This document shows positions 40,442 to 64,000 of a DNA stretch of 64,000 nucleotides, one piece after another. Position 1 is the first letter of the stretch. Each line of letters starts with the position of its first letter. The stretch covers positions 712,113 through 776,112 of the forward strand of contig NW_003314335.1 in NCBI RefSeq assembly GCF_000143415.4, read 5' to 3'. The notes under the pieces were generated by a model that worked only from the letters and a program-made list of their open reading frames with translations, was not told the DNA's origin and searched no databases. Position numbers and translations under genes: made by a program. The DNA comes from Selaginella moellendorffii. Lineage: Eukaryota; Plantae; Lycopodiophyta.

Positions 40442-40658
40442 TGTTATGAGCTATTCTTGGCTCATAACTAGTACGGATGCGGGACGACAGGGGATCCATA
40501 CGAGACATATATGGTCCGACTGGCGCAAAGCGGGAGGGTAGGTTTTCGTTGTTCTCTTCTTCTTCTTCCAGGCCTTGAGCCTTTTCTCTTCTCTTGTTTC
40601 TCATGTGAATCACTCATTAATGGATCACATCCTTTTTGATTGGATTCTCATCCTAACA
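40442..40658 (+). repeat. 5' LTR of Gypsy element 1 (217 bp)
   Basis: TGTTA/TAACA termini immediately upstream of the tRNA-iMet PBS. Confidence 0.75.
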
Positions 40659-43600
40659 TTTGGTATCAGAGCATTGATCAGGACCTTGGCAAAGATCATT
40701 CGGGATATCGCATCGTGGGAGAGAGGTTTGGTCCACGTCCTTAGCTCCACGGCATTCGCCCGATCTAGGGTACAGCTGTCTCAGCAGGGCATCCGACAGG
40801 AGGTGTTTGCGGCGGCGATCATTTACCCTAGGCTGCCGTGGGCGATCTGGGCTTGGGCGAGAGCAAGGCGCCAGAAAGAAGCAATGCCACCATGGAACAA
40901 AGGAAAAAAAGAGGTGAAATCTTCCCCGTCAGCCGATGGAGAATCCAGCAATGTTGAGGTGGTCGATCCAGTGAATTCTCCACAGGTAGTGCCTAAGCCG
41001 GTTGGTGAGTTGAGGGAGGTGTTGCAGTCTTTCATGCAACGCTATGTGACGAATCATCAGCAGGACTTGGAGAGGTTCCAACAATTGCAGCATACCTTGG
41101 CCATCATCGAGCACAATCAGGCCACTATGGGTGGCAAGATAGAGGAGCTGGGGGAGCAGCAGCGGGTTTTGACAGAGAAGCAAGAACAGATGGGGTCTAG
41201 GGTCAAGGATCGAGGAGACCCTGATCTGAAAGACATTGTGCACCGGTTTTCTGACGAAGATTGGTTCCAAGATTCGAGTCCTGAATTACCCCCAACAGGT
41301 GATCGACCTTGGTATGATGACTTGCTGGAGAAGATGAAGTCACCAGTTCCAGAAGGAGGGGCCAAGGGGATACTCGGGAGGGGTCCAGGGATGGGGTCAC
41401 GGTGGCAGGATCGGGAGAAGCTCAATATACTGGAGTACGATGGCTCAAATGATCGGCTAAGACTTCAAGATTGGCTCCGCAAGCTGGAGTGGTGTTTTGT
41501 GTGGCAAGATACCAAGGGAGTGGATAAGGTTCCCTTTGCATCAATCTTCTTGAAGGATCTGGCATCTGAGTGGTTTCATAACTTGGAACGAGCTCGCATA
41601 TTTCTGGACTGGGAACAGTTCAAAGTCTTGATCACAGACACTTTCATCCTGACCCCAGTTTTGGAGCTGCCCTTCAACAAGTTGTGCGACCTTCGCTATG
41701 ATTGGCAACATCAAACTCTCCAGGCATTCAATACAGGATGGTTACGGGCCAGATATGAGGTAGTGGGAGTTTCAGACGAGATTTTGGCCCAGCGTTACGT
41801 AGCAGCGCTGCCCTCATCAATGGCAGGTGATGTTGCTCAAACCAAACCAGTTTCTGTGCGTCAGGCAATGGTGGCAGCATTGAATGCAGACCAGCGGTTT
41901 CGTGAATGGGAGTCTCGATTGCGTCGTCCTGATATAAGCAGGCTTCATCGTCAGGATTTCCCAGCTGCATCACCGACCCCTACGCCGACAGTGTTGCCGA
42001 CAGTGAACAGTGATAAGGAACGCAAGCCTTGGCGAGATCTATCCACTCAGGAACGGGCCAAACGCTCAGAGGATTTGAAGCTAGGCAAATGCTTTGATTG
42101 TGGGCAGAAATGGACTCGAGGCCACCATTTGGTTTGCCCATCTCGGAAGGGTGCTACAGTTCCCAAGGCAAAGGTGGCGATGCTACATTTTTGCGAGGCT
42201 GCTTCTGGGGAATTTGTTCCAGTCGACATGGACACGGTTGATGAGAGTGAGGAGATCTTTGTTTGGGAATCAGGGAACAACAGCCCGGGCTTGGAGGACC
42301 CGGACAGCTCAGGTGGCAAGGCATTTATCTCCTGCTCAGCATATTTTGGAAAGACTGGTCCGCAGTGTTTCCGGGTGCGGGGAACAATTAATGGCAGAGT
42401 GGCATTCGGCCTGGTTGACTCTGGCGCCTCACACACGTTTGTGAATCGGCGGAGTTTATCACAGCTGAAGCTCCTTCCGTTGCATACCAACAATCTTTTG
42501 AATGTCGAGATTGCGGATGGAGGGATGGTGGAATCATCTCAAGTGGTGGATTGTGCATTTGTGGTTGGGGAGTACACAGTGAAGGGTTGGTTCCATGTGC
42601 TGGATATGGGTGCAGTGGACGTAGTCATCGGGGTGGAGACTCTCCAACAGCTTGGGGATATCATGGTGAACTTCCAGGAGCAACCATGATAACGTCTCAG
42701 CTTCAATAACAACGGCAAGAGGGTCACTTGGGCGGGTATCGAGGTTCCCCAGGACTGCTCAACAGTGTCTTACGCCCAGTGTGCTCGGATGTGTGGGAAG
42801 GGCGCAATCGCCGTACCAGTTGAAGCTGGAGACCAAACAGAAAGGTTGCAAAAGGTTGAGAGAGATGAGATGATGCAGTGCAGAGTGGCTGATAGCAAGA
42901 ATTCAGTCGCTCAGCAGGAGGAGTTTCATGAGCTTCAACAAGATATTCTCAGGTTGATGATTCCAGGGGATTTGCGTGAGGTTCTCCTCCGTCATCTACC
43001 AGTTTTCAGACACCAAGTTTCTTTGTTGGTGTCATCTAGAACAGGTGTGGAACATTCCATTGTTCTAGAGGGCAACTCCATTCCAGTTACTCGTCCATTT
43101 TTGAGATTATCACGGGAGGAATGTCAAGAGGTTGACAGGATGACAGATGAGCTTCTCCAGCAGGGACTGATAGAGCCGAGTTCTAGTCCATTTGCGGCTC
43201 CCATTTTGCTGGTTCTGAAAAAAGATGGTGGTTGGCGACTGTGTGTGGACTACAGAGCACTGAACAGAATCACAGTCAAAAACAGGTTTCCTATTCCGAG
43301 GGTGGAGGAATTGATGGATGAGCTTGGGGGAGCCTGTTTCTTCACAAAGCTGGATTTGAGATCGGGGTATTATCAAATCAATGTGGTGGAACGTGATCGT
43401 CACAAAACTGCATTCAGGACACACAGGGGTCTTTTCCAGTTTAAGGTGATGCCCTTTGGGCTCACTAATGCACCAGCCACATTTCAAGCTGCCATGAACA
43501 AGGTGTTGGGACGGTTCTTGTTCAACTTTGTGGTGGTGTTCTTCGATGACATCTTGATCTTCAGCCGAACTTGGAAGCTGCACCTCAATCACGTGGAACA

Positions 43601-46600
43601 GGTACTGCAAGCGTTGGAGGAAGCAGGAATGGTGTGCAAGCTCGCAAAGTGTTCTTTTGGTGCTGTGGAAGTGGACTACCTGGGATTTAAGGTGGCTGAG
43701 GGACAGGTGATGGCGGATCCAAACAAGTTAGAGGCTGTTGCTGACTGGCCGATACCACAAACCATGAAACAGCTTCGGGCCTTCTTGGGATTTGCCAACT
43801 ATTTGCGGAAGTTTGTTAAGCATTTTGCTTCAGTAGCTGCTCCTCTCACAGATCTCCTCAGGTCGACACAATTCTGTTGGGATGTTAGGGCCCAGCAGGC
43901 GTTCATGAATCTCAAGCAATGAATTGTGGAGGCTCTGGTTCTGGTGTTGCCAGATTTTTCAAAGGAATTCACAGTAGACTAATGCATCAGACCAAGGAGT
44001 GGGAGGAGTTTTACTCCAGCAGCATGGCATTGTTGCTTTTGAGAGCCGCCGGTTTACGGAGATTGAATCCAGAGCTCCAGTATACGAACAGGAAATGGCA
44101 GGTGTTATGCATGCTGTTCGTCGATGGAAGCATTATTTGGCTTTCCGTCATTTTCGGCTTCACACTGATCATGTGAGCATTCGGTTTTTGCTCACTCAAC
44201 CCCACCTCAACAAGAAGCAGATGCGTTGGGTGGACGAACTTCAAGCCTTTGACTTCACTATCGAGTATCGACCAGGTGCTTCCAATGTACTTCAGATGCT
44301 CTTTCACGGAAGTTTGCACGCACCGAGGAGTCAGCTCTCTATGGGATTTCTCGCCTGCAACCGGAGTACGTAGAGCAGATTCGGGAGGGGTACGCACAAG
44401 ATGTGGCCCTTCAACAGATTCTAGAGCAGCTTCAGAATGGGGAGCAGCATCCCAAGCTAGTCCTCATTGATGGCATTCTCTGGTCAAAGGGACGGGTGTT
44501 TCTCAACAACAAGCATCCATTGCGACAAGAAATTTTCCGTGAGTGTCATCAGGGAATTCTTGCTGGACATCCCGGGGTGGCAGCAACATTGGCGGCAATC
44601 AAGCTTCACTTTGTTTGGAAAGGCATGCAGCGAGAAGTGAAGGCGTGGATTCAAGAATGTCCGGTATGTCAGGTGGTAAAGACAGAGACAGTGGCTTCTC
44701 CAGGTCTTCTCCAGCCATTACCAGTTGCAGATGGTCCCTTTACTAGCATTTCCATGGACTTTGTGGGGGGTCTGCCTCGTTGCCAAGGAAAAGACATGAT
44801 AATGGTGGTGGTTGACCGTTTCAGCAAGACAGCTCGGTTTCTGCCAACGACAAGTTCAGTGTCTGCAGCAGGGATAGCCGAGTTGTTTTCTCGAGAAGTG
44901 ATTTGCTTCCATGGTCTGCCTCGGGAGATTGTTTCTGACCGGGATCCGAAGTTCCTCAGCTTGTTCTAGCGTCACCTTTTTTCAGCTCTTGGGACCAAGC
45001 TCAGCTTCAGTTCAGCGTATCATCCCCAATCGGATGGGCAGACAGAACGAACCAACCAGACAATGGAGGTATTTCTCAGAGGTTACACACTAGATCGTCT
45101 TACATCATGGCTGCACTGGCTCCCATATGCAGAATTTGCATATAATTCGGCCTGTCATTTTGCTACAGGGTTTGCTCCTTTGGAGATTCTCTATGGGCGT
45201 CGAATCCTATGTTGGCCAGCTCCCGCACTTCCGGTCCCAGAGGTGACAGTTTCTGGACATCTAGAGACCATTCGGGAGTTGCATCAACAAGTTCATAGCA
45301 GGTTGGAGGCAGCTCGTGCAACCATGAAACTTCAAGCTGACAAGCATCGGAGTTTTCGAACATTCACTATTGGCGACCTGGTGTACATCAAGTTCCGACC
45401 CCATCGTCACACTCTAGGCTGTCGAGCGGGCTCTCGATCCAAGCTGACTCAATGCAAGCTCTATTTCGTTAAAGTGGGATTTATTCAGTAAAATGGGACT
45501 AGGTACAAATTTTCAAGTATTTGAAAATGACGTGAAATTATATGTTTTTTGTCCAGGGGCTAGACATATCTGGGGCATGGTGACTAGCGCGGTGACTTTA
45601 TGTCCAAACTGAGTCCATCTGGTTGTATAATAAATCTCATTGTCAAGGTGAACAAGCCGAATCTAAAGCTAAAGAAGAGTGATGGCATGCGCGCACACAC
45701 TATTTGTTTGTTCATTGAGCGTGTGGTGAGCTTTCCAAGATGAACGTCATTCCTATTAGCCAGACTTATAACTTAATGGTGAGAACATTTAGATATTATT
45801 CAATGTTATCTTTTTCTAACGAATCTAATTGTGAAGGTGTAGCAAGAGGCATTGCTAGTCTGGAGAAGTCATTTAACTCATTTGACCCTTAGTGTATTTT
45901 CATGAAACTAAATAACATTCATATTATTAAGGAATTTCTCTAGTACCTTTTTTTTACGACATAGAGGCTTGCATTTCTTTCAAAGGTGATTTAGTAAAAG
46001 GCCTGAGGGCACATGCCATTCTATTTCTCAGACCGGTATTAAGATATACTAGTGCAAAGGGAAAAAGGTATTTGGTGATCAAGTAAATGGCATGAGGGCA
46101 CACGCCATTATAAGCCTAAGCGCTAGTGGACACCTCCTTTTTGGTACTCTCAGCGGTACTATCATCCTTCTCCGGGTCAGTTGTTTTGCTTTGGATTGTT
46201 GTCTCTGACGTTACTGGGGCGTTCTCGATAGTTGTTAATGTTGCCGTTTGTTCAGAAAAATGATCACCTGGAGTATAGTACGGGGAGTTTGGAAGACTTA
46301 TATATTCTACATCTTCAGTTATCTCCTTCTCCGTCTCCTTTTCTGCCTCACTTACAGATTTTGTGCTTGCCATGAGAACGCTCTTCACCCTAAAATATGG
46401 AGTTCGTTGTGTTATAAAAGGAAACCAACACACACACTGCAAGGGAATGATGGTACATAAAGCACGTAAGCCCACAATATGGGTTTATGTGCCATTAATA
46501 TGGGCCACACGCCATATTATTAGATTTATGCATGTGTGATTGGTAAATGCATATGTCACATCATCTTTGTTTTACCTCACACACTATATCAGGCCTAATG

Positions 46601-47011
46601 AACCATATCACATGTGCGCACATGCTATATATATGGAGAAGTATTATGCAAGGATAGAAATTCAATGCATGATTGTGAAGAGCAATGGCATGAAGCCACA
46701 TGCTAAATAACATTTTAGAGAAAGAATTAAAATAAAAACATGCAAACAGTACTAAGTGGACCAAGACTTAGAAGTGCACAATTGAATGAGGTATTTCTAA
46801 TAAATACTTCACTCACCTCATATAGGAATGGCTACCACTCTCAAATGGCATATCGCCTCATGCCATCACCTCGCAATTTGTTATAACAATCCGATGAATT
46901 CATATTCGGCTTGTTCACCTTGAACTTTAAGTAAGATTTGCTAGAACAACTAAGAATTTATACTTGTTATTTGTATCATCTCACCTAGGAATGGCGTAAG
47001 GCCACATGCCA

Positions 47012-50000
47012 TCACGCCTCCTCTGATTCAGATTCGAATTGTTCACCTTGAAATAAAATACATTAGAAACTTAGTAATGGAATATTCATGAATCTCACCT
47101 TGAACCCGGGTTATGAATGCTCTTGCTACATCTCTTGCATGGTCTGGCAAGGTGATGGTGGCACTCTGCTTCCGCATCCAACCATGCACAACATTATCCA
47201 CCGATATGCTCATGCTGGGATCCCTTGGATTCAGCACCCATCTCTTTTCTAGGCAATCCTTCGTATATCCGGAACTTGGCTTGAACCACTCCACAGTTAC
47301 ATTGAAGGAGTTAGTTTCCGCATCCTCCTCTGCATCAGTGATGCAGCGCCCCACCCATATCATTTGTTTTTTATTACTGGGTCTGACAAGCACGACCATT
47401 CCTTTGCAGACCTGTACTGGATTGAATGCTGAATCCGGCTTCTTGTTCCTCGGCCCACAATAGTGATCCTCAACATCGTTATCTGTCACTGCATTTCCAG
47501 AGGACATTGTTCCGCTACTATCTGGTGCTCTGGGTTCTGGCCAAAATGACTCTTCCAATTCTTCATATACAACCGGCCCATTTTGGATAGCAGATATAAT
47601 CTTCTCCCAGTATTCGAGCAAAGGCTTGCACCTCTGAAAATAGGATTCTCCACCAAACACCAACCCCCTCTTCCAGAAGGCAATATGCTGTCTAATCCCG
47701 GCCACTATACTTTCCTGGTCTTTGAGTCCATCTGGGTGCATCGGCCGTGGGGAACCCTGAGGAATCATAGGTTCCCCAGTTATGGGATCTCTCTTGAAGA
47801 GTTCAATGCCGTCCACTGGCAGCCACACTGTGTCCCATTCTCTCATCTTGTATCTCATTACTGGAGCACCGTCACACATACTGAAATGAAGCTGAAGAGG
47901 CTTGGAGTGGCCAATCAGCGTTTCAGATCCGTCCTTGATGTAGCCTCTTACAAACCCCTTAAAGTCTGGAACCTCTGTCAGAAGTGCAGCTTCAATAGTG
48001 CCTTTGATGCAATTTTGGAATTCATCGTAGAGTTGTGGGAGGGTGAGGACATTGGATCGCCGGAGGGACTCTGCCAGGTGACTGAACATGGCATCAACGT
48101 CTTCATGAGTGTGCCCAACCATGAGAAAGCCAAGTGTAACCGTTTCAAATATGCCTTTGGCAACAAGCATCGCCAAGTACGCGAAGACGTACATGTTTTT
48201 GTTCTCACTGCCAGCATTGTCTGTTTGGAGCAGAAGATGGGGTGGAAGGCCACATCGGCCGCAAGAACTTCCTTGAGATTCTACTTCGTTTGGATGAGGC
48301 TGTGCATTCACCGGGTGACCAGCCTCGTCGGAATGGCATGAGGCCTCACGTGATAACCCTACAATCTGACGGCCAACATATTCACTGGGATGGCATGGGG
48401 CCCCACGCGATACTGCAAGCCTTTGCTCCTCCTCCAGCTGAACCCTGTATGGGGTTCGATCGACAAGGGCCTTATGCAAGGGTTGGCCGTTCAGCTCAGT
48501 CTGCGCACTTTGCAGAGACCTTAAGTGTTTTGCTAGGGACGCAATCATCATGTTCGCACCCCCGCCACCCCATAGAGGTACAAAGAAGTTCCCATAGTTC
48601 TGGGCACCATGCCCATGAGCGATTATGCCAAACAGAGACACAGGCAGTTGCATGGATGAAGAGATTGCCTTGGGGGCAGGATTGAGTCGAGGTAAGCACG
48701 TCTTTTTCTGGTCCATTTTGTCGTGGATGATGCAGAGGTAAGAGTCAGGTCTCTCCATGGAGAGAATCTTGTTATGATAATATGCAGTCCTGCAGCTTCT
48801 CTGCTCGATGTTGTGGTCGAGCCGCCTTCTAACCAACGTCTCTCGCTCTTGAGCGGTGCAAGAATTCTTCGACAAAGCCATTTTGATAGCAGTGCACTCG
48901 TCACACTTTGAAAAGTTGGAGTACTTTCCTATACTCACATCCCTGAACCCGTTGCTCCACAATCTACTAAATCTAGATTGGCTCAGCTTCCTGTAGCCAT
49001 TACTCTGGAGTTCCCGATTCACATCTTCCAATATGGCCCCCTTGGTATACATGGAAGGGAGAACTCGTTGGGTGTCTCGTGTTCCATCTTCCAAGAGGCG
49101 GGTTTTATGTGGTTGCTGCTCGCTACATGTTTCGACAAACCTCTTGAAGATTGCCTCTCCATATACAACATGACCCCTGGTTTTGTGCGCACCGTCGTTC
49201 CCATGGACTGCCTGTTGAACCCTTTGTTCCTCGAACTCAGTTTTGATTCTGTAGAATGTGGTTCGAGGGACTCCATAAATGATTCTCTATGCCTTCATGC
49301 AGACCAAACCCTTCTGGAAGACCATGCCCCCCACCTGATATTCTGAAGCATCAACAGATGACCGTAATGCCTCATACACAAAATTGCGAGCTGCCTTCCA
49401 GGACAATGTCTTGTATCTTGCTCTCTCCTCTTCAATAGCATCCCAATCAGCATGTTGACAGCACCTCCTCTTGCAACAAGCAACTGTCGAGACCATTCGA
49501 ACCTCCATCGCCATTTTCTGCTTTTTCGGTTCGTTGCTTAGATCCCTTTGGCTGCGCTTTAGGAAGGTGTACTTTCTTTTCCCATGAAGAGATGTTCTGT
49601 CATCAGTTGTAGTGGTGTTTGATTGTGAATCCTTCACATTCTCAAACACTAAGTGCCTCAATTTCCACCGCACAATGCTTCCAATAGTCAGACTGTTTTC
49701 TTTTGTGTCAACAACCTCTAAAATCGCAACTCCAATATCATCCCAGCCCAATTCTTGATTAGCAACCGCATCTCTTGGATCGACAACTGTGGCTAAGCCC
49801 TCAGCTACCACCTCCCCTTCGGGGTTGTTTAGAAACACCTTCGCCTGAATCCATGTAGCACGGTTCTTAAGATCCACGGAGGGAACATGCGTCGCACTTG
49901 CGCTGTCCCCAACATCTGCTTTCTTCTGAAGATTTTTCAAGGCAACAACAACATTTACCCCGACGACCATCTCTCCTCGTTCAATAGCGACCACATTCCC

Positions 50001-50153
50001 ATCGAAGACAGTCTCTACTGATACAGCAGCATTGCCTTCCCCAAGCTTTTGACAGTGTATAACAAAGTTCCAATCCATAGACACAAGGGTCCCTTTTGCA
50101 ACTCTCTTCCCACCATTCAAAATGTAAACCTTTTCCCCAACCCTGAAGGCCAT
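47012..50153 (-). pseudogene. ~1030-aa DDD/E transposase (Sola-like), one premature stop at 49287
   Basis: ORFs 49287-50153 and 47043-49094 are in the same frame and open between them; FSKCDEC, HDKMDQ, QTDNAGSENKN, FLMVGHTHEDVDAMFS; probable small terminal exon GEQFESESEEA*. Confidence 0.8.
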
Positions 50154-53045
50154 TCTGAAAGTGCAGAAAAGAAGTTAAGACCATAAAAAAAATGATTGGA
50201 GAATGGCCTAAATCATAACATACCAAACAACCTCAATAGCATGAGGCCGCCATTATTCAAACATGCTATTGACACCCACGTGAAATTTCGCATTCACAAA
50301 ATTGGCATGAGGCCTCATGCCATCTTGATATACACACAGCTGCAGGCAAGTAAAAACATACATGACAATACGCTAGCCATGAAATTGCAAGGGCCCAAGA
50401 TGGCATGTGGCCTCATGCCATTTCTAAATGTGGTCCTAAGCCATTCCATGGTGAACATACCAGGAAGCACAAGTGCCGAATATCAAGAGGAAGCGGTAGC
50501 CACACCAAAGACAGTGCCACTCGCAACACCGCAACTACTTGTAGTGCCGCTCGCAACACCGCAACTGCTCGTAGCGCCGCTCGCACAAACTGCCACTCGC
50601 ATAAACTGCCGCTCGCAATGGCGCTCGCAATGCCGCAACCGCTCGTAGACGCATAAACCACAGCCCACAACGCCGCTTACACAAGCAGCGCTCACTGCGC
50701 TCAGTGGAACCAAGAACACGGCGCACAAAAATGATAGACCTAGGAATGAGTTCGAGAATTCAAAAATAACACACGCTTGAACGTCACATAAAATCCTCTG
50801 ACAAACCAGATCTTATGATTCCTTTGACAAATTTCAAACTGAGTAGCTTCTAGACTTTGCTGTCAGAGGTTGAACTTTGTCACATCATGTCCTTGCCTCG
50901 ATCCAGCTGTGCCATGTCAGTGATTCGAACTTTGCCATGCCATGTCAGCGATTCGCGCCAAGATTATTCGCCGTGTAAAGGAATAATTATGCTGTGTGTG
51001 TACGTCCATTTATGGCAATATAAGGCCACACGCCATTCAAAGAATAATGCTAGTCGAGCATTTTTTGGTGCATTTTTGGGTTCAAAATTGCATGAGCCCA
51101 CACGCTATAAAGTTTACCTGTACCAAAAATAGAAACAGCTTTATTTACTTGGGAATTTAAGTGGTTGAGGCATTTTTAAACTTACAAACACATGCCCTAC
51201 TTACATTCCTTTGGTTGCTTAAAATTCAAAAATATTATAAACCTTTCTTTTTGCATTTTCAATGTTTTCAATTATGGTTTTTGATTTTCGCAGGACCAGC
51301 CTAGTAATCTATTTGCATCCCGTCATGTTTATAGCTAGCTTTTGTTTGTCCCCTTCGCTAGCCTGAGATACATCTGCTCGGCATTTGCCTCTTACAGCAT
51401 TTGCCCAGAAAGGGCATCTTTCTTCACGCAGCATTTGCCACATGTTTAGGGTTTAGGGTTTAGCAATTCAGTAGCTTGATAAACATGCAAATACAGAACT
51501 TGATGCAAAATCCTTTGATATATCACAATGCCCCTAGGACCATAACACATTTCAATAGAGAGGGTCCTTTCATTTCATAACTCCTTACGTAGATCTTGGT
51601 GAAACCAGAGTTAGTGAAGTTAGTTTCTTGTGATCCCACATCTGATTGTGATGTCCCTTTGCAGTGTCGATGGAAAGGTCAATGCACACCAAACTGTAAA
51701 ATCTTGGAGCAAAATAACGGTCGGATCTATGGCAAATGCCCCTGAAACATTGTAAGGCTCGTGTGGTCTCATGTGGTGTCCGATCGAGATGCTTCTTTGC
51801 AGAGTCATCAAGAAAGACATTGTATACCATTCTGTAAAATCTAGTTGCGATCTAACGGTTGGATCTCCAGAAAACTCAAAAAAATCTCGCGCATGTTAGA
51901 ATATCCTAGGAATATACTCCTATGTGCCCCTGAAAATGGCATGCGGCCCCACGCCATTCAAGAGATAACGCCAGATGACGCCGAGAATTTTTTGGTGCAT
52001 TTTTTGGGTTCAAAATTGCATGAGCCCACACGCTATAAAGTTTATCTTTGCCAAATAGAGAAAAGTTTATCTGTGTCATGTGAGGTAGTTACAGTCCTTT
52101 GTGCTCGACATCTGCCTCTTGCAGCATTTGCACTGAAAGGGAATTTTTCTCCATTTAGCATTTGGCCTTAAAACTGGCATGCGCCCACACGCCATTCAAG
52201 GAATAACGCCACAGGAGGCCTGGATTTTTGGGTTTAAAATGTTTAGGGTTTTTTGGGTTTTTTCAAAATATTTTGGGTCCAACGTTTTTTGGGTTTCTTT
52301 GCTTCAAAATTGCATGAGCCCACACGCTATAATATTGATTTGAGAGAAAAATAGAAATAGATAGAATTTCTTTATTTAGCTGAACATCTGCCATTTTTGG
52401 AAATACAAGATGCTTTGGAATATCCAATCATGCATGGTATAAATATAGCGAGGGTATTAAATGATATCCCAATCATGATCTTTCTTTTGGATTTCGCGTG
52501 CATGCAGTCCGAGGAATGATGACGTTGCGGATTTCTTTTGGATTTTGCGTGCTTGCATGTGCGCGGCAATCCAGAAATTAATGGTGGCGCCCAAGTCCGA
52601 GGAATGATGACGTGGTGGGATTACCAACCGTTGTGACATTTCGCGCGTGTGAGGTTAGGTTTTGCATTTTGCTTCGTACTCGCGCTCGCGCTCGCATCAC
52701 ACTCGCGCTCCCGCTCGCATCGCGCTCCCACTCGCGATCACGCTCACTTCTCTACAGGTTTCTCGTGTGCATCGGCGTCCACTCGCGCTTGCATCACACT
52801 CGCGCTCGCATCGCGCTCGTGTGCATCGGCGTCCACTTCAAGACACACCCAGTTTGTAACTTCGCCGCCAACTCCGCCGCTCACTCCGCCACCCACACGC
52901 AGCCCACTTGGCGTCCTGGGAGATTTCAGCGCCACTCTCCAACTGTAAGTGGCAGAGTAGCCTTGCTGCTACGATCCGCTGCACACACAGTGCACATTCG
53001 CCAGCGAGTCCAGCCTCGATTGTCACAGCCTCCATTCGGCTTCAA

Positions 53046-56000
53046 ATGGTAAGTCTTTTAGGCCAAGTAGAAAATGGCATGAGGCCACATGCCATTCAGT
53101 AGCAACATTGGCATGCACCGATTGGGCTCTCGAGTGCAGTCCGGTTACAGATGGCGTGTAGCCTCACGCCATCTTAGGATGCAGCCTCAAGACATCTGAT
53201 GCAGTGGTGAATGGCGTGTGGCCTCACGTTATTTCCAGCTGCTAGCTTTTCATCTGTCAGCTCTAATTGTTGTGCATTTCTGAACAGGCGAGGAATTGCG
53301 TTCTTCTTCCAGCCACTGTCAATGTGGATGCAGAGAAGGGGGAGGAGCTCACCAGTTGGACTTTCGGGATGGAAGGCGAGGATCTGATGCTGTACAACAC
53401 AAATGGTGGGAGAAAAGAATGCATGGGGATCCTCATCCAAGTGACAGACACTCCATGCAGTTCCATGCAAGAATATGGACTGGCACTTGTGGTAGAGACA
53501 GCGTCCGCCTTCAAGATCCACCTTGCACATCCTAGCGGCTTCCCGGAGGGGGGCAGCGGCTATGAGGAATTCCTAGAGGGAGCTAGGGAGAGGTTGTCCA
53601 GGAGGCCCACAATTTCAAAGACGTTGTGGGTCTATGAAGATCACATGGAATCCACGGACCTCACCTACGGCGATGTTCAAAAACTATATTCCAACATTGA
53701 GCCGTTGAGAGTGCCTCCAGTTCGCGAAGCGAAGGGGAAGGGGGTCGATCTGGAAACTACCCCGAAGCAGAAAAGGGTGGTCAAGCTCAAGCCGACGTCC
53801 GACTCTGCTGCTCCAAAAAAGAAGCTACTCAGTGATGCCATTGCCTCGGGTTCGAACACTACACCCACCAAAAAGAAGAGCCGCAAAGAGCAGAAAGAGC
53901 AAGAAGAGGCAGCAAAAATCGTCGCAGATAATAGTACTTGTTATTATTCCAACAAAGTATATACAATCGACGTGAGCCGTATCGACATCCAAAGCAAATA
54001 CAACCACAGGCTAGTATCTGATGAGTGGGTGGAGAAACTGAAGCAGAAGATGCTGGCAAGTCCAGTAACACCCGACATCGCAGACGTGATCCCCTACTAC
54101 CGAACAATGAAGGGCGAGACGAGGTTTCCAGACTTGATCAATAGGAAGGTGTTGGACGATCAGAACATCCGGTTCTATGCCATCTCCGGGCAGCATTCTA
54201 GCTTGGCGATGCAACAGATAGTTGTGGATATTATGGTGGGCAAGGAGGTGAAGAAAGTCTTCAAGACAAGAGTTGTCCGCCTGATAAAAGGCAACTCGCC
54301 CCTCCGATCTATCATATACATCTCCCACGCGCAGAATGTCAAGCAAGAAACGTTGACATAAACGTGCTACAAATCGGGTCTGCATGAGACATTGGCACGA
54401 ACACGGAAGCTCTGGGTTCAACTGAAGAAGCCACAAAAACCAGGACAAGGACGTGCACTAGCAACTAGCGCCTGGCAGGTAAGCCTCGTTGCATGTGGCA
54501 TAGCATGTGGCCTCACGCCATTTCCATTGCAGGAATTCTCGAGTCTTCTCTCGAAAACACTGGGGGTCAATGACACACTCAGCATCCATAACATTCTACT
54601 CGCGACAAAAGTTGTTTTTGACAAATGGGTAGATGTGCTGAGGAGGTACCATGACAGGGAGTTGCTAAACTCAATGGGTGTGGAGGACGGCCGGAAGCCC
54701 AATGATTTGAAGCTCAACACCTTGCGTTTCTCGTGGTCTCTAGACGACGACGACCTTCTGACAGTGGCTAATGCTCTTCTACGTGGTGAGGTAGTCTTCA
54801 ACAAGACCAAAATGACTCCCGGCCATATTGTGACATACGAGGACTTGTGCACGACTCTGAGAGCTCGTGCGCTATTGAAGGATTGGATCTTCAAGCAAGT
54901 GGCCGTGGAGAGGGTGAGCATCGACACCACGCAAGAGATGATGGAAGAGTTGGAGTTGTCAAATGAAGACATCGACGAGTACGTGAAGGGGGCCCCCAAG
55001 TTCATCGATCTGCTGCAGGATGCCACGAAAAGTAAAGCTGAGAAGTTGGATCAGTATCCAAATTTCATTAAGAGGGATGTCGACCGCCGGCTTCAGAAAC
55101 AGCTCGACCCCGCAGCAGAGGCCTATCGAGAACCTTACCGGGTATACGTGAATTCGGATGAGGATCAAAGGTGGAGGAGCATCGTTTCCCGCGGAGATGA
55201 GCAAGTCAAGAACATCTTTTGTGTGATGGACTTCACAAACGAAGAGATCACTCATGCAGACGAAGTCAGCTCCATCATTGACTTAATGGTGGGACTTGCG
55301 GAGGTGGAATCTTCAGTCCACTATATGATCTACGACTCCGAATCCTATCACAAGTTCTGGAAGGCCTTGAACGAGGTGAAGGCTTGGTTGAAAGGCAAGG
55401 AGATGTAGGAGATCCATGGGATAATGGCTAAGAAGAAGATACCAACGAATGTCTGCATCTTCACACTCGCCCTTGTTATTGGTCCTGCAGCAGAGTGGGA
55501 CTGGAGTGACTTCCCAGATTCGTTCGACAAGGCCGATCGAATTGATCTGAGGGAGGTCAATTTACCCGTGCCTGAGGAACTGAAGACGGCTATGGAGCTT
55601 TCGAATCCAAAGAAAGCTCCAGGTGCAGCATGGGAAATGCTCAGCTGGGTCTTCAACGCAATAGCGGGTGACTCCAAGGGCAAATGCGTTGTCGAGTACA
55701 ACTGTGGCGGACTATTCTTTCGAGCCGCACTACTCAAGGGTGTCCCGTGTGTTGCGGTGACAAACTCCATTGAAGAGGTGACTTCAATGGAGCATATAAT
55801 TACAGTTGCCAAAGAAAAACAGTATCTTCTCTACGAACCTAGTGAGTACGCACTTTAAGTTTAAATGTTATCTCACAAGCTCTGTATGCAGGAGCGTGGC
55901 CACCCCCAGATGCTGAAACGGCGTTAACAGCTACTGATGTTAGGCCGAGCTCACAACCTGCACAAGGTAAGGTCACGTGAGGCCTCACGCCATTTTGATT

Positions 56001-58638
56001 ATAGATCGTTGTGAATATTCAGACACGAGGACTGAAAAGCGCACTGGTGGCGCGTCGAAGAAGGACAAACAGAAAGGCAATAGGAAAAAAGGAGGTACAA
56101 ATTATATTTGCAATGGCGTGTGGTCTCATGCCATTCCTTGTAGGAGACACTTCTTCAAAGGCAAAACAGGCAAGCATCAGCCAAGCTCAAACTGACAGTG
56201 GTCATAAAAAGCGAAAGCACGTTGGACAGTCGTCGGGATCAGAGGCGTTTGATTTGAAAAGGAAGAAGGGCAACGAAAAGATGATAGGTAATGCCTCGCG
56301 GTTATGGCGTGTGTGCTCATGCCATTCATTGCAGATCAAGGGCTGAGTGAAAGGAGCCAGTCACCACCTCCTGACTCAGATTCCTATGGCGGACTCCCCT
56401 TCCCCAATCTCAATGGAGAGGTACAATGGATAAGGGATGCTTTTCAAGTCAGGGCCACATTTTTCTCATCTCGTCGTTTTTGAAGGGTGCAAGAACGTGC
56501 AGAAACCATGTTAAGACAGTCGGGTGAGGATACGGTCCTAGGTCAAGCACTAAAACAGGCTATGGATGTCTTGTATTTTGAGATGGAGACTCGGCCAGAT
56601 GATTTTCCCAAGATGGTCCTGGAAGAACAAGCCATCCAGCCTGAGCAGCCTATGGAAGAAATGCAGGAGGGGGATGAGGAGCCAGAGAAAGATAATGAGC
56701 AGGAAGAGCAAAAGGATGAAGAGGAGGACAAAGAAGAGGAGGACGAAGAAGAGGAGGACGAAGAGGACTTGGATGGTCCTCACAATGGTGACGATCACAA
56801 TAACGACGATGACGATAATGACGACGATGGCCAGCCTGAGGTGGCCAAAGAGCAGCGGAGGAAGGTCATACAAGACAAACCATCAGGTAAATAATAGTAC
56901 ATCCATTCCTAACCTTTTATCATTTCTAACATTGTCCATGTAGGTCGCAGAAGAAATGAATTAAGATACAAACTCTAGCCTTTAGTGTCGAGGAAGGATA
57001 GTGCCAAGCAAGGGTCGAAACGTATGTCCAATCCTTCAGAATCAGCAGTGCGCCCAAGTGATATCGGTCCTAGTTCCTCAATAGCAGTTGATGGTAAATA
57101 CAGTATAGTCGATTCAATGTGCTAATGAGTTTGTTTTTAGTAGCCAGTAGGGAGGATACCATCTCAATCGAAGGGAGATATTTGGACATGCATATGGATC
57201 CGCCAGTGGACTCTACTTGCCTGCAAGAGTCATCAGAGCTGGTGGAGGCTACTATCCATATCAACGCCAAGCAAGCTGACCACGCTCCACTTGATGCTGC
57301 CCATACCATTGAGTCAATCTTGTCCACGTATCCAACTGACGGTGACCAAGCGCCATTGGACCCGCATGAGGCCGCCCCAGCCGCCGAGCCGGTCATATCC
57401 TCATTTCCAACGGACTCAACGTGTGCCCAATCGTCTGACTACGCGCTGTTGGAACCTCCCTACACCGCCCCTGCTGCCTGTTCGGTCATGTCCACTTTGC
57501 CAACGGAGGCACCAGCTGAAATGGCGTGTGATCACACGCCATCGGAACCACCCCATGCCACTGTTGAGCCAATTGTACCAGAGTCTACAGCTGAAATGGC
57601 ATGTGCCCACACGCCATCGGATGCGATTGACCCCACATTGCAGAGGAGAGTATTTCCGCCCTTCACGTTTCCTCGACCAAAACCCTCTGAACGACCATCG
57701 GGAGCACCATTCGCTAATATTGTAGATGGTAAAATTGACTTGTACCATTTTTTATGCTGACGCATTTCATTTCAGAGTCACGGCGAAAGTACTGTATCGT
57801 TTTTGATCTGAACGGTGTCCTTTTCTCCCATGAGCGTGGCTCGTCCTCGAATGTCACTGCACCCTCCAAAGCCTGCGGTCGCAAGTTGGTCAAAAGAGAC
57901 AGATTCACATTAATCACACGGGAGAAACTGCGGGATCTAATAATGACCATGCGACACTTAAAACAGAGGGCCGGGTTCAATTTGCAATTGGGAGTTTGGA
58001 CATCCATGATGCGCCACAATGCATTAATGTTGCTATAGATGATGCACGATCAGACGCGAGTAATATTACCATTTGACTTTCTCCTAACGCAAGAGGATTG
58101 CTTGACTATGGTCCATGTGAGGGGTAGCAAGCCCATCTTCATCAAGCCAGAGGCTGTAGTGATGAACCGGACCGCTAGGTCAAGTGAAATCCTCATCATC
58201 GATGACTCGCCGATTAAAACTGCAGCGAACATGCACACATATGCAGTGCACCCCATCTCTTGCAGTATGGAAACTAGGGAGAAGAAACCGTATGTTCTAG
58301 GGGACCTTGCAAAACGGCTTGAAGCGATGGTGATAGAGAACCGGCCAGTCCAGGAGGTGGCTGCAGAAATCAACCAAATGGCAGATGGAACGGTATATTA
58401 GAAGCCATTTGATCGAACAGACACCAGTCATCATTTATGGCATGTATATTGTCTAGCCAAGCACTATCCGCATCTCCATAATCTGCTCAACCGGATGGGT
58501 TCTTCGACCACTGAACATGAGCGTGGACGTATTAGAGAAGAGATGGCATTACTATTGGGTTTAAATCCTGATAGTGTGGAGAGTGATGAAATTCCAAGAT
58601 TATTGTATAGGCGTTGGAGGCAAAAAATAACAGTCTGA
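53046..58638 (+). pseudogene. Multi-exon transposon cargo gene: ParB-like domain, degenerate amino-MTase-like domain, acidic/Pro-rich linker, FCP1/HAD phosphatase-like domain; 4 in-frame stops
   Basis: ATG|GTAAG at 53046, exon 2 from 53288; collinear in-frame ORFs separated by single stops (54359, 55406, 58036, 58399); NHRLVSDEWVEKLK...FYAISGQHSSLA; IVFDLNGVL...GVWTS...LIIDDSP.K. Confidence 0.7.
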
Positions 58639-59479
58639 GATGGCATGTATTTATTTAAAAATGTAACTTATTATGGCATGGGGTTCCATGCCATTGTATT
58701 AATATTAAAAGACAATTCTTTGAGAGGATTTGCATTATACTAGAAGTGTTAAAGCATGTTATTGGAAGTCTACGAAATTGTTTTATTAATAAGGGAAAAG
58801 TAAAGATTGAATGGGGACTTGGGCTCCACCTAGACTCGGAGCAACTGAGCCAATATTAAAAAGATGGAAAGAAATTGGACGACGATGACAAGGAGAAGAG
58901 AGAGGTGAAGCAGTGGCAGGGGGAGGAGAAGTGATTGAGTAGACATTTCCTTGTTTAAAATAAAATGGCATGTGCCTCAATGTAGTTGAATTTTGTTATA
59001 TTTATATACTATATAAAGGTTTGGAAACCTTATTTTACAAGTGGGATAATAAATATTCCCACTTTAACGAAATAGAGCTTATGCTACTTTGGTCCTTTTC
59101 AGGTGATTGAAAGGATCAATGAGGTGGCATTTCGGCTGGCTCTTCCTCAAGGGTGCAAGCTCCATGATGTGTTCCACGTTTCCGAGCTCAAGTTGCATTA
59201 CGGTCCGACTCCCTTGTCGACAGTGGAAGTTCCAGTCCGTTCGTTGGGGGACCAGCATCTGGTTGTGCCAGATAAGGTGATCGATGTGGAGACTCGTCAG
59301 CTGCGTCGACGTACGATTAAGCGTTATCTTGTTCGCTGGATGAACACTGGGGGGGATACAGACACCTGGCTTTCTCAACAAGAGTTCGATCGTCTGTGTA
59401 AGGAACCAACTCGCCGAGGTGTCGTAGGCTAAAGGAACCCCGAAAGCATGACCAAAATGACAAAGAGTTCATCGGATGG

Positions 59480-59762
59480 GACCAAGTCGAAGATCGAGTC
59501 CAAGACCGACTCTAGGACCGAGTTCGAGATCGAGTCCGGAATCGAGTCCGAGACCGACTCGAGGACCGAGTTCGAGTCCGAGTTCGAGACCGAGTTCGAG
59601 ACGGAGTCCGAGATCTGAAATCGGGTCCGAGACCGAGTCCGAGGTCGAGTCCGAAGTCGGGTCCGAGATCGGGTCCGAGATCGAGTCCGAGATCGAGTCC
59701 GAAACCGAATCCGAAGTCGGATCCGAAATCGGGTCCGAGATCAAGCCAGAGACTAAGTCCAA
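59480..59762 (+). repeat. Hexamer-based (GAGTCC/GAGATC) minisatellite in the LTR
   Basis: Tandem TCCGAG-like units. Confidence 0.9.
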
Positions 59763-61589
59763 ATACTAATACGGGTCAAGGGGTGAAAGCCCAAAGCGTG
59801 CGTCTCCCAGGGGGGGGGGGGGGGCTGCAGGGGGTTCCAAAAGTACAGTAGGGATAGTGAGGTCCAGGATCCAGTTTTGAAGGGACTCTCCAATTGGGCT
59901 TCCAAACCGACTTGAGGTTGAGACTGGGACCGAGGGGCCTTGGGTGGGAGTGAGCATGGACTTGGCTGGTGCCGGAGGGGCCATCCAAGGAAGTGCTCAA
60001 GAGCAGCTCCCACTCCCGAAAGGGAAACCGATTGCGGTGCTCCCGACTCATGTGGAGTGGTGCCCCACTTGAGTACCATGCGGCTCATTGGTCCTCGCCC
60101 TTCCTAGGGGCTTGGGCCTTCCTTCGGGATGGAAGTGGGGGGCGAGAGGTACCCATACCGGGCCGCTAGGCCACGATGTTTCGCCCCGGTGTCCCGAAGC
60201 AAGTGTTGCACTCAAGACTTGGGATTTAGAGGGTCCCATGATCAAGTCTTGTGGTACCAAAGGATGTTAGGAACCTGGAAGCTTGGTGTGCTTGGCTGCT
60301 TGTGCTTGCGGGGAGTGTAGCCGAACCTTAAGTCCAGTCTAACCCGGGGAGGGGGATTGGGAGTGATTTGGGAATCCGTGGATGGAAGGCTAACCCCCCG
60401 TTGCTCGTGCAGTGAGTAGCTGAGACCAAGTAGGAGCTGGTACCATAGGCGAGAACCTTGGCAAGGGAACTTAGCAAAAGCAAGGGCGGTGTTGGACGGA
60501 TAGACGAGGTAAGCTGGCAAATTGGAAAGGAAAAATTTGTGGCTTACAATTTGGTATCGGAGCCTTTATCTCAGTTCTAGCGAAGGATAGTGTAAGCGAC
60601 TAATTTTTCCATTTTACTTTAGTCACTTAACCGCACCTCCGACCACTTGGAGGAGTCTCATTCACAACCTCCATAAGTCCCAGTTAGGACTTGGGGCTTG
60701 CTAGCCCCGAGAATGGCCTCCGTGCCACTCCACCTTTGCACTTGGTCCAAGTGCTCCACGTGTCCGATCCCATGACCGACACCCCAAGGTACCCCTGACA
60801 TATCGGCCCGTTACGCTAAGGCCATGCCCATTCACCTTGGTCACACCGGTGGTCTAACACCACATAATGCATCATTGTCCCGTCTCTCAAAGACTGGGCC
60901 ATCCGTCCATGAGCGATCATCCCCGATCTACTCCTTAGCATCCTTAGGATGCCCGCAGACATGGGGAATAGCCTTCCCCGACAACTCCTTTCCAGTCCCC
61001 ACCAAGTCCCTTTTAGTCTATGGCCGTGTTCGCCAACACTGCCACTGGATCAAGGCCCGCAGGCCTGACCGCTAAGTCCCACTGTCCTTTGGGACTTCCT
61101 CACCATGTGACCGTCTCCTTGGTCACTGCATTAGAGGCCTACTCCTCTTCCCTTTCACCGTTTGGGACTTTGGGACAACATTTCGGAACACCGTGGCCTT
61201 ACGCAAGCCTCATGGGTACTCTCCTCGCCTTTCGCCTTTAGGTGCTCTAGCCATGGGCTTAGAGCGAGGTTCCGTTGAGCCACGACAGGTATCCAAGTAG
61301 GTAGTGCCACCCGCACTTGGATTGGGAGCATCGGCTAGTCGATCTCCCGGGGGAACTAGAGCCAGCTCTTGAACACTTCACCAAGCTACCCCGCTTGTCG
61401 GTCTGTGTTCACTCTAGTCTTGGACTTCCCAGTGGGCAGCTCATCACCCAACACGGGGTCCGGCCTTCCTGGGCCAAACTGGCCTTTCCTGGCCAAACTG
61501 GCTCCACTGCAGTCCTCCCCCTTACTATACTTTTGGAGCTCACCAAACCCCCCAGGGTCTGGGAGACGAACGCTTTGGGCTTTCACCCT

Positions 61590-62190
61590 CTCAGACTCGA
61601 ACTCGGACTCGGACTCGGACTCGGACTCGGACTCGGACTCGGACTCGGACTCGGACTCGGACTTGGACTCGGGCTCGGTCTCGGACTCGGGCTCGGTCTC
61701 GGCCTCGGCCTCGGTCTCGGTCTCGGTCCCGATCTCGGTCTTGGTCTCAGTCTTGGTCTCGGTCTCGGTCCCGGTCTCGGTCTCGACTTCGGACTCCATC
61801 TCAGGTCCATCTCGGACTCCATCTCGGGTCCATCTCAGACTCCATCTCGGGTCCCTCTCGGACTCCATTTCAGGTCCATCTCGGACTCCTTCTCGGACTC
61901 CATTTCGGGTCCATCTCGGGTCCACCTCGGACTCCATCTCGGACTCCATCTTGGACTCCATCTCGGACTCTACTTCGGACTCCACTTCGGACTCCAACTT
62001 GGGTCCATCTCGGACTCCACTTCGGACTCCAACTCGGGTCCATCTCGGACTCCACTTCGGACTCCAACTCGGGTCCATCTCGGACTCCACTTCGGACTCC
62101 AACTCGGGTCCATCTCGGACTCCATCTCGGACTCCATCTCGGGTCCATCTCAGACTCCATCTCGGGTCCCTCTCGGACTCCATTTCGGGT
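61590..62190 (+). repeat. Hexamer-based (GGACTC) minisatellite in the Gypsy-2 leader, complementary to the LTR array
   Basis: (CTCGGA)n followed by 12-36 bp higher-order units. Confidence 0.92.
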
Positions 62191-64000
62191 CCCTTTATGG
62201 AGCCTCGCTTTTTGCTCGCTTCGTGCTCGTTCCTCGAGCACTTTGTTGGGAGTTCCACTCCCGCTCTTGACTTTTCAAGTCGGAGCTTTTGGTCCAAACG
62301 TGTTACGCTCGTTTGGCTCTCGCTTCGGCCACTACCACGTGGCGCCCTTCCAGCTCCACTTTTGGGGCCTAGGGATTTTGTGTCTCACAGATAGAGGCGG
62401 ATTGCTGGGAGATGGCAAGGGCAGGGCGTAAGCGAACCCAGGCGGAGACGGAACCTCCGCCGGAGCTGGAGCCTCCGGTCGAACAAAAGGCTATGGATGA
62501 GGAATCCTTGCATGAGGAGGACTCTAGTGAGGAAACTTCCAAACAGGAGTCCGGTGGTGAGGTTCGGTCGTCCAAGGCTCGATTGGATGTGCTAGAAGGA
62601 TAGTTGGCACAAACCAATGCCCTGCTGGAAACTCTCGTACGCAAGCTAAAGCGTGACGAGAGGCGGAAGAAAAAGAAAAAGACTGCGGATGCTGGCAGCG
62701 CAGAAGGTGCGGATCTTTCGGGCGGGACTGAGGCAAAACCAGACAAGGTTGAACAGACCGAAGTAGAATCAGTCCCTCAGGCAGTTCCCAAGTACAAACC
62801 AAAGCCCCCACCGGTCTTCAAGGGAGTGAACGACTATAAGGTGGTGGAGGATTGGTTTTACGATATGGAGGACTACTTCCGAGCGTTGCGGTTACCAAGC
62901 TCGGAGAAGGTCCCATGTGCAAAACCATACTTGGCAGATAATGCCAAGTCTTGGTGGAGAACGACGAAGGCCAACGAAGGACCAATGGCCACTTGGGACA
63001 TGATGAAGGCGAGGATCCGCGCAACATACGTTCCTCCGAATGCCACTCTGCATCTGAGAGATGAGCTGAGTAGGCTGAAGCAGACTGGAACCATCCAGGA
63101 ATATGTGAATGGGTTCATGGCAAAGAGGATACTTGTCACGGACATGGGGGATATGGATGCATTCCATGCCTTCATATCAGGTTTGCAAACCTGGGCTCAC
63201 GGTGAGGTGATGCGGTGGAACCCGACCAACTACAAGGAAGCGTTGGATGCGGCCATCAAGGTGCATTTCAACGATAACCTGTGAAAGGGGAACACGATGG
63301 GGTCGGGATCCACATTTAGCAAAGGGGCCAAACCAAGGGGAACGTATAGCAAGGGGAAATTCAAAAGGAGTTTCTCTAAGAATGAGTCCTCGGGGTTCCG
63401 GAAAGGCAAATTCGGTGGCCAGCGAGCGAGTACGTGGGGGAGTCAAGCGAAAAAAGACAAACCCACGGATAAGAAGGTCAAGTCGTATAGCAGCGTGGGA
63501 AACAACATATGCTACAACTGCGGTGAAGCGGGACACTTCTCGAGGGAATGTCCCTACCCGAAGAAGGCCAGAGCTAATATGGCCATCAAGTCGGGTGAAG
63601 TCCAAACTGAGGTATGTGATCCAGTCCCTAACTCAAAGTTACTCATTACACGAGCAACTTTGGTAGAGAGTCGTTCGCGACATCTACTAGCCCTCCGAGG
63701 GAAGCTCGGAGGTAGCTTTGTTAAGATCCTTATTGACACAGGTGCTTCGGATAATTTTGTGGCTGCAGACATAGTCCGGCAAGCCGGACTAACGGTGCAG
63801 CGGCTAGGCGAACCAAGGACTATAGAGTTTGTTCAAGGTAGCCAAAGCACCGATGAGGTACTTCGACAAGCGAGAGTCGAAGTGGGGACATGGAAAGTGG
63901 ACATGGCGGGATTTGACGTGATCTTCGGAATGGATTGGTTTAATAGGTTCGTGGTAGCCCTACATGGACAAGGTAGGAACCTTGTGGTATTGGCAAATGC

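Follow-up and report, generated by a model that had tools for sequence, protein, structure and literature searches.

The lycophyte Selaginella moellendorffii carries, within a Sola-type DNA transposon, an accessory (cargo) gene predicted to encode a ParB-like domain, a methyltransferase (MTase)-like domain that probably lost its catalytic motifs long ago and an FCP1-type phosphatase-like domain; the transposon is dotted with a 22-bp palindrome that occurs nowhere else in the DNA analyzed. That DNA, referred to below as the window, is a stretch of 64,000 nt from contig NW_003314335.1 (assembly GCF_000143415.4, positions 712,113 to 776,112), and all coordinates are positions within it. We tentatively propose, with somewhat less than even confidence, that the cargo product is a self-targeting, VANC-like accessory protein that would bind the element's own palindromes and so keep its promoters usable against host methylation.

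The Cargo Gene Lies in a Sola-Type Transposon

An original prediction, made from the letters of the sequence, regarded the gene as the cargo of a DNA transposon, and terminal inverted repeats (TIRs), a target-site duplication (TSD) and a DDD transposase gene bear this out. The element spans 13,625 bp (45456..59080). Its left TIR (45456..45479, + strand) is 24 bp long, starts with AAGCTC and is 100% complementary to the right TIR (59057..59080, - strand); the 4-bp TSD ATGC flanks them on the left (45452..45455) and on the right (59081..59084). The insertion site is a Ty3/gypsy element whose integrase frame is split by the transposon, and excision in silico rejoins that frame, bringing KLTQC next to YFGPFQV. 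Each TIR is also the end point of contigs whose flanks differ (one stops at 45456, others at 59078-59082), and in run X1 the summed contig depth, which is not a copy count, was 630,000-940,000 in 28 inner bins versus 120-520 at the listed flank positions. These two observations identify the element as a member of a multi-copy family.

The transposase main exon (47099..50155, - strand) matches DUF7869 (Pfam E 6e-41) and contains the motifs HDKMD, TDNAG and HTHEDVD; it carries one premature TAG (49287-49289). The accessible text of PMC10741241 characterizes Sola elements by a 4-bp TSD and TIRs of 11-1124 bp. Here we find three Asp motifs in the DUF7869 open reading frame (ORF; the triad was assigned by inspection), the ATGC duplication and a 24-bp TIR. 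A DDD transposase together with a 4-bp TSD therefore fits Sola, and the AA...TT termini, which resemble those of Sola1-1_Ec32, would place the element in the Sola1 subgroup.

Cargo Segments Are Predicted to Splice into One Protein

The cargo gene (53046..58638, + strand) and the transposase gene are arranged head-to-head. All peptides quoted in the original prediction were found on the + strand, and the ends of its interval coincide with the ATG (53046) and the TGA stop (58638) of our gene model. The predicted gene has 10 exons in the copy studied, and 11 where a donor lost here at 56956 survives. Its nine GT-AG introns are all in phase, and eight of them measure 47-57 nt. On this splice model the segments are predicted to form a single protein of about 1,635 amino acids (aa), in agreement with the earlier claim of one protein. 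Splice sites were picked by eye from consensus scores, so the in-phase junctions are support, not proof.

Other copies of the element were compared in four runs (X4, X8, X5 and X13), representing at most three samples. In all four, position 55841 is a G, making for a stronger donor (55842) at the end of the MTase exon. All four also have 22 extra bases after 56956 that supply a donor and are deleted from the studied copy; together with the acceptor at 56985, the restored donor defines a 49-nt in-phase intron. The TAG at 56976 is thus intronic rather than a premature stop. A 12-nt insertion bearing TAA 54359 (54349..54361, + strand) is absent in X19, X4, X8, X5 and X13, and TAG 55406 in the MTase exon and TGA 56481 in the linker are absent in other copies. 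Two TAGs in the last exon (58036 and 58399) are not among the 40 listed of 75 difference rows. Overall, the studied copy has six lesions, of which four are absent from other copies and two were seen neither way. The studied cargo copy is dead; relatives without its lesions would supply the protein. Two runs guessed to be RNA were rejected as transcript evidence, as their contigs read through predicted introns (records 12, 15 and 18) and may be DNA.

The predicted protein begins with an N-terminal region and Lys-rich linker (53288..53938, + strand) that has no Pfam match and aligns loosely to the N-termini of homologues P0004, P0010 and P0011. The ParB-like domain is followed by a conserved, all-helical middle region (54533..55126, + strand; BLASTP to the S. 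moellendorffii homologue P0003, E 8e-13). Its model is of low confidence, with a predicted local distance difference test score (pLDDT) mostly under 55, and was scarcely probed by the fold search; the region is a candidate for the DNA-recognition part of the protein. Beyond the MTase-like domain, linker exons encoding about 507 aa (55892..57728, + strand) are acidic and rich in Pro and Ser, with the basic words KKRK and KRKK, and lead to the last exon.

The ParB-like Domain Is Predicted to Retain the Fold and Lacks the GxxR Arginine

The ParB/sulfiredoxin (Srx)-fold domain (53939..54355, + strand) includes an invariant Arg (54008) and the stretch FxAISGQHS (GQHS at 54188-54199). In an alignment of 14 ParB-exon sequences with about 25% identity, 11 columns are invariant, including an Arg and SGQH. 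The model of this part has a pLDDT of 70, and among the matches listed in a Foldseek search of PDB, 28 of 29 are ParB, Noc, PadC, KorB, Srx or SbnI proteins (Noc, E 6e-5); Atu1540 and a Pfu hypothetical entry, which we take to be ParB-like, are included in this tally. A VIA structure search placed PadC (Z 10.3, root-mean-square deviation [rmsd] 2.8, 99 residues aligned) and KorB (Z 9.5) far above the first rows of non-ParB type, which score below Z 3. Eleven matches at E<=0.001 are viral ParB proteins. As judged from the model, the domain is a member of the ParB/Srx fold superfamily.

ParB CTPase clamps carry a GxxRxxA nucleotide motif. The cargo family has GQHS at this place in 9/10 sequences and GQHL in the remaining one, and the replacement of the GxxR arginine by Ser in 9/10 sequences makes CTP-clamp chemistry doubtful. 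The original view of a prokaryote-derived DNA-binding module is supported as to the ParB fold; DNA binding by this part is putative. Sequence profiles (Pfam, NCBIfam and PDB) run on the cargo detected neither the ParB nor the MTase part. A language-model feature comparison of the ParB-exon homologue P0026 with DUF3723 (PF12520) clusters scored 0.93-0.94 with 158-168 shared features, just below the guide value of 170, and no DUF3723 match was found by Pfam sequence search; we treat this likeness as a lead only.

The MTase-like Domain Is Predicted to Keep the Fold without the Catalytic Motifs

The next domain (55127..55834, + strand) is predicted to have a beta-class amino-MTase fold and lacks the catalytic motifs, with DFTN in place of DPPY (55229) and EYNCGG in place of DPFxGSG (55694). 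This was the weakest call of the original prediction, and both folds whose absence from structure searches was to count against that prediction, ParB/Srx and MTase, were returned, the latter from a low-confidence model. The exon-3 model is poor (pLDDT 47.5). No Foldseek match to this model reached E<=0.001, and CcrM came 49th in the ranking. In an exhaustive VIA search of 48,161 chains, in contrast, the top 11 rows were all amino-MTases (Z 10.1-7.8), and the first unrelated row scored 6.7. The matched region comprises residues 199-434 of the exon-3 model, and the best Z values belong to CcrM (10.1; rmsd 4.2, 180 residues aligned), M.BceJIV (9.7), MboIIA (9.6), RsrI (9.3), bdelloid N4CMT (8.8) and PvuII (8.5). 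For the Atlas model of P0003, 8/10 structure rows carry PF01555, with template modeling (TM) scores by query of 0.36-0.41, all under 0.5, and only one of the rows reaching the naming bar; two of the PF01555 rows come from clusters that also carry ParB_N.

The domain has the beta-class motif order, with motif IV before motif I. Set against eight real MTases, motif IV has nothing left but the Asp, motif I is shorter by one residue and no acidic residue stands in the column that binds ribose. Neither (D/N/S)PP(Y/F/W) nor FxGxG words occur in any of 7/7 sequences from three independent lineages, in which motif IV reads DFTN, DLRR or DSAN and motif I reads EYNCGG, EYGCGG or DINTGG. MAFFT set the motif-IV strand at YMIYDS rather than at VMDFTN; we preferred alignment A3 and the modeled strand, and neither place has PPY. 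Profile comparisons were weak: hhalign against YhdJ and against the eight MTases returned probabilities of 0.3 and 0.1, and hmmsearch with an MTase profile picked out only P0023 and P0021 among six sequences (E 0.003-0.007). Given the absence of catalytic words in 7/7 sequences from three lineages, the domain is likely a pseudo-methylase of long standing. The losses of ParB and MTase motifs are common to relatives and therefore do not reflect decay of the studied copy.

The Last Exon Encodes an FCP1-Type Domain with an Altered Motif I

The last exon (57776..58638, + strand) encodes a NIF/FCP1-type HAD domain and an 80-aa tail. The NIF/HAD stretch (57790-58236, + strand) exceeds the Pfam NIF cut-off (24.2 versus 21.8 bits, E 3e-05), as expected from the original assignment. 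It contains DLNGV (57805), VWTS, a Lys and IIDDSP, supplying the nucleophile Asp of motif I, the Thr/Ser of motif II, the Lys of motif III and the DD of motif IV. In FCP1/SCP enzymes motif I is DxDx(T/V). Here, the general-acid Asp is replaced by Asn. Of the phosphatase-like effector proposed earlier, the family placement is supported; its activity, and the modulation of chromatin or transcription suggested with it, are putative. We regard DLNG as the usual form in an uncharacterized NIF subfamily of plants and fungi, not in proven C-terminal domain (CTD) phosphatases. FCP1 proper carries a C-terminal BRCT domain; no Pfam match to BRCT was found on the 80-aa tail.

A 22-bp Palindrome Marks the Non-coding DNA of the Element

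The best clue to a target of the cargo protein, missed by the original prediction, is an element-specific, self-complementary palindrome, ATGGCRTGNGGCCNCAYGCCAT, present in 26 copies between 45682 and 58694. Allowing up to five mismatches, all 26 lie between the TIRs and none in the remaining 50.4 kb of the window (mean in shuffles, 0.33); with up to three mismatches there are 24 in the 13.6 kb of the element, none in the other 50.4 kb and none in 30 Markov shuffles. The shuffle test is lenient because the consensus came from these same copies; the lack of matches beyond the TIRs serves as a fair control. Though 59% of the element is coding, 22/26 palindromes are non-coding (P 7e-6). Three lie in cargo intron 1 (53074, 53151 and 53211) and others in four further cargo introns (54500, 55972, 56113 and 56304), so that 5/9 cargo introns hold at least one; there are two in an exon (57521 and 57596) and one 3' of the stop (58673). 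Seven more occupy the region between the two genes (50156..53045), which comprises 5' introns and untranslated regions, contains telobox-like TTAGGGTTT words and would be the divergent promoter region. The outermost 1.6 kb at the left end of the element hold seven palindromes; near the right end there is one, at a distance of 0.4 kb.

The 52 half-sites read CATG (28), CACG (20), CACA (1) or otherwise (3). Neutral decay of methylated CpG should give TG and CA equally, and the near absence of CACA therefore suits a methylation-tolerant reader. Among the 40 listed of 75 difference rows, 25/32 C>T/G>A differences are at CG or CHG sites, where 34% would be expected (P 3e-7). This concentration of the transitions that set the studied copy apart indicates that the host methylates the element.

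Homologues Cover Parts of the Cargo Protein

With phmmer, 1.84 billion representatives were searched and 11 matches found at E<=0.001; two of these (P0007 and P0012) were dropped as repeat-driven. Of the nine credible matches, seven cover the ParB exon and end with it, close to a common intron position; the other two cover exon 3. S. moellendorffii is the only named plant among the sources of these homologues. An S. moellendorffii homologue fuses the ParB-exon tail to the MTase exon at the same junction (EWQ-EF in P0014). P0003 and P0014-P0016 correspond to S. moellendorffii SELMODRAFT_409495 and 416075, annotated with the helical and pseudo-methylase parts only; these genes are either truncated relics or a domesticated copy.

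Word-based protein searches returned no matches for cargo residues 210-857 and none among proteins of 882-2515 aa; with a ParB profile they returned three matches and missed 8/9 of our own homologue rows. These searches were weak, and so full-length fusions are not shown to be absent. Locus scans of metagenome, viral and prokaryotic contigs detected no relative, and a tblastn search of phages with P0003 yielded a single match, attributed to chance.

Proposed Function and Alternatives

If the cargo protein is a self-targeting factor, a dimer could recognize the dyad site by means of the helical region that follows its ParB domain, as in ParB, Noc and KorB. At one position CpG or TpG is tolerated and CpA hardly ever, and the protein might still bind when that cytosine is methylated. 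The ParB domain would act as a dimerization or loading switch, possibly without CTP hydrolysis, as the GxxR motif reads GQHS. The probably dead methylase may serve as a scaffold that grips DNA, a legacy of a ParB-MTase fusion of phage type, and the HAD domain, on its 500-residue tether, could bind or weakly dephosphorylate a nuclear phosphoprotein, e.g., the RNA polymerase II CTD. VirB, a bacterial ParB-family protein, reportedly offsets silencing (PMC10653881).

Several observations weigh against this proposal. Each of the three modules is missing a canonical catalytic residue (GQHS in the ParB part; no DPPY or FxGxG in the MTase part; DLNGV in the HAD part), which leaves the effector step unsupported. 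Among the nine credible phmmer matches, none spans the ParB and MTase parts or includes the HAD exon, and P0003 ends directly behind its MTase-like part. Confidence in the exon-3 model is low, and no helix-turn-helix could be made out in it. The transposase could be the palindrome reader, and the TG/CA bias could stem from repeat homogenization. Finally, protection has failed in the studied copy, as it is heavily mutated at methylatable sites.

A possible, though in our estimate rather unlikely, alternative is that the protein has no anti-silencing role and is instead a transposition cofactor, compacting the 13.6-kb element and bringing its ends to the transposase, or a KorB-like autorepressor of the shared promoter. 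The palindromes near the left and right ends would suit such a role, as would KorB and Noc being among the closest folds and the retention of the same TIR and palindromes by a different, shorter element in run X5. On the other hand, most sites are found in the promoter region and in introns of the interior, without symmetry about the ends, and a phosphatase-like domain would have no obvious role in strand transfer.

We consider it improbable that a phage-type ParB-methylase has been converted into a eukaryotic anti-silencing device, its ParB part working as a clamp that loads at methylation-proof, parS-like intronic palindromes, spreads along the element and delivers the FCP1-type domain to RNA polymerase II, with only this family escaping host silencing. 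Slightly less probable still is that the transposase reads the palindrome, or that the palindrome forms a hairpin in RNA, the cargo being a long-carried passenger without action on the element. Degeneration of all catalytic motifs would agree with a passenger, as would an S. moellendorffii homologue that, as annotated, is without ParB and HAD parts, and the transposase has an N-terminal Transposase_23-like segment (Pfam E 0.024) and a Cys-rich part that could bind DNA. Against a passenger, the 11 invariant columns in 14 ParB-exon sequences point to long purifying selection, the four checkable lesions are absent in other copies and a Sola1 element with this layout has been described from brown algae.

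There is little to recommend an active methylase that uses non-canonical chemistry to place 6mA or 4mC at the palindromes or close to them. In its favor are the retained fold, beta-class motif order and motif-IV Asp, and the description of algal relatives as putative N6-adenine (N6A)/N4-cytosine (N4C) methylases; both catalytic words are missing in all seven sequences of the three lineages, however, the loop for S-adenosylmethionine is one residue short and the aligned column has no acidic ribose-binding residue. Least credible, by a hair, is that the HAD exon is a separate gene or that the ParB-MTase protein terminates at TAA 55856: P0003 ends at the same place and exon 9 has in-frame Met codons, but inter-exon gaps of just 47-57 nt are too short for a promoter, the junctions are all in phase and other copies have a stronger donor at 55842.

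Other Features of the Element and the Window

The transposase starts with two similar Transposase_23-like segments (by inspection; only the first is the one with the Pfam match), and its C-terminal end (47099-47400, - strand) has a Tudor/PWWP-like, beta-rich stretch, VVLVRP...WVGRC...VEWF, again by inspection. Both parts are possible chromatin readers. Palindromes at 48333 and 48390 lie inside an in-frame, poorly conserved-looking stretch of the transposase ORF that precedes the second catalytic Asp; this stretch may be an overlooked intron, which would raise the non-coding share of palindromes. Downstream of the transposase, a 122-codon acidic/Thr-rich frame (46116-46484, - strand) without a Pfam match probably represents further 3' exons of that gene. 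Rfam found no RNA families in the element.

Three other insertions, each read on one side, have AATA, AATT and ATAT as the tetranucleotide adjoining the TIR, compared with ATGC here, which hints at an A-starting, AT-rich target for the family. Record 18 of run X5 is a 4.9-kb contig with the same TIR and palindromes and different DNA between them; it belongs to a related or non-autonomous family. The element is also present in runs labeled organisms B and C; mixed DNA is possible there, and we do not read horizontal transfer from its presence.

The host gypsy element (40542-45451 and 59085-59432) encodes gag, protease, reverse transcriptase, RNase H, integrase and a chromodomain-like tail. The surrounding window is gene-dense with short introns and contains kinase, subtilase, pentatricopeptide repeat and glycosyltransferase-like ORFs (by inspection). 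Arrays of a 12-bp GAGTCC-type unit (Glu-Ser/Asp-Ser frames) occur at 59445-59790, in the long terminal repeat region, and at 61400-62300, beside a second retroelement. Two N runs (assembly gaps) at 23700-24600 are distant from the cargo gene.

Relation to Known Systems

The original prediction treated the domain arrangement as unprecedented, a view that the literature overturns: ParB-plus-MTase accessory genes are published on Sola1 and Plavaka transposons, so that ParB-plus-methylase transposon cargo is already known from brown and red algae. In the accessible text of PMC12477816, the Ectocarpus element Sola1-1_Ec32 has a 1,104-aa ParB-plus-MTase gene on the strand opposite its transposase, the best listed match of which is Sola1-1_PPa. 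As far as that description goes, the Selaginella element shares with it a giant Sola architecture, a 4-bp TSD, AA...TT termini and, inside the TIRs, one gene combining ParB and N4C/N6A-MTase folds opposite the transposase; the two are likened by layout, not by sequence. From its name, we take Sola1-1_PPa to be a moss element. The Selaginella element differs from Sola1-1_Ec32, as described, in its land-plant host, its length (13.6 versus 21.5 kb), its TIR (24-bp perfect versus 282-bp imperfect), the size of the cargo product (about 1,635 versus 1,104 aa), the loss of MTase motifs, the extra FCP1-type domain and the dispersed palindrome.

Red-algal Plavaka PAG2/PAG3 comprise MTase-SET and ParB-2OG oxygenase genes, and in Bostrychia inverted-repeat arrays beside the accessory gene are proposed self-targets (accessible text of bioRxiv 10.1101/2025.02.11.637652). 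As in our element, a transposon-borne ParB-like domain is joined to an effector, and PF01555 methylase cargo and inverted repeats occur. In the Plavaka elements, by contrast, the transposase is of the EnSpm/Plavaka type, ParB and MTase are in separate genes and the repeats form tandem arrays rather than being dispersed in introns. According to the text available for the Arabidopsis protein VANC21, it binds a motif in introns and other non-coding parts of its own VANDAL element (PMC5735166). The likeness is that a second transposon gene goes together with a motif peculiar to the family, found mainly in the introns, intergenic stretches and terminal non-coding parts of the element. It is a works-like comparison only: VANDAL is a Mutator-type element, its 9-bp non-palindromic motif occurs in tandem repeats and its function has been shown experimentally.

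In domain order and folds, the cargo protein also resembles phage and bacterial ParB_N-N6_N4_Mtase fusions and ParB, Noc, KorB and PadC; unlike these, it has GQHS in place of GxxR, has lost DPPY/FxGxG, is encoded by a spliced gene and is less than 20% identical. It is like FCP1/SCP in its NIF score above cut-off and its Asp, Thr-Ser, Lys and DD motifs, and unlike them in DLNGV.

Land-plant or FCP1-fused ParB-methylase transposon cargo was not found in the literature searched; supplements of the Bostrychia preprint may list further cases. The accessible text of PMC4738411, PMC8885841, PMC6839031, PMC5751038, a Marchantia 4mC preprint and a 2026 retrotransposon preprint makes no mention of a land-plant element of this kind. 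What is new here, not found in print, is a land-plant Sola element whose ParB-methylase cargo has shed the methylase motifs and gained a phosphatase-like domain.

In the available text of the Bostrychia preprint, VANDAL elements are the only ones described as binding and modifying their own sequence (bioRxiv 10.1101/2025.02.11.637652); algal genome papers put forward ParB-plus-methylase accessory proteins as a second class. The Selaginella family offers a compact land-plant test case, with a 22-bp candidate site, copies without the lesions that could be compared, methylase chemistry apparently lost and a phosphatase-like domain gained. This variant suggests that self-targeting is the conserved job and that the effector (oxygenase, SET or phosphatase) is swappable. 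The family would also reveal if a module of the bacterial ParB/parS type can function on the chromatin of plants.

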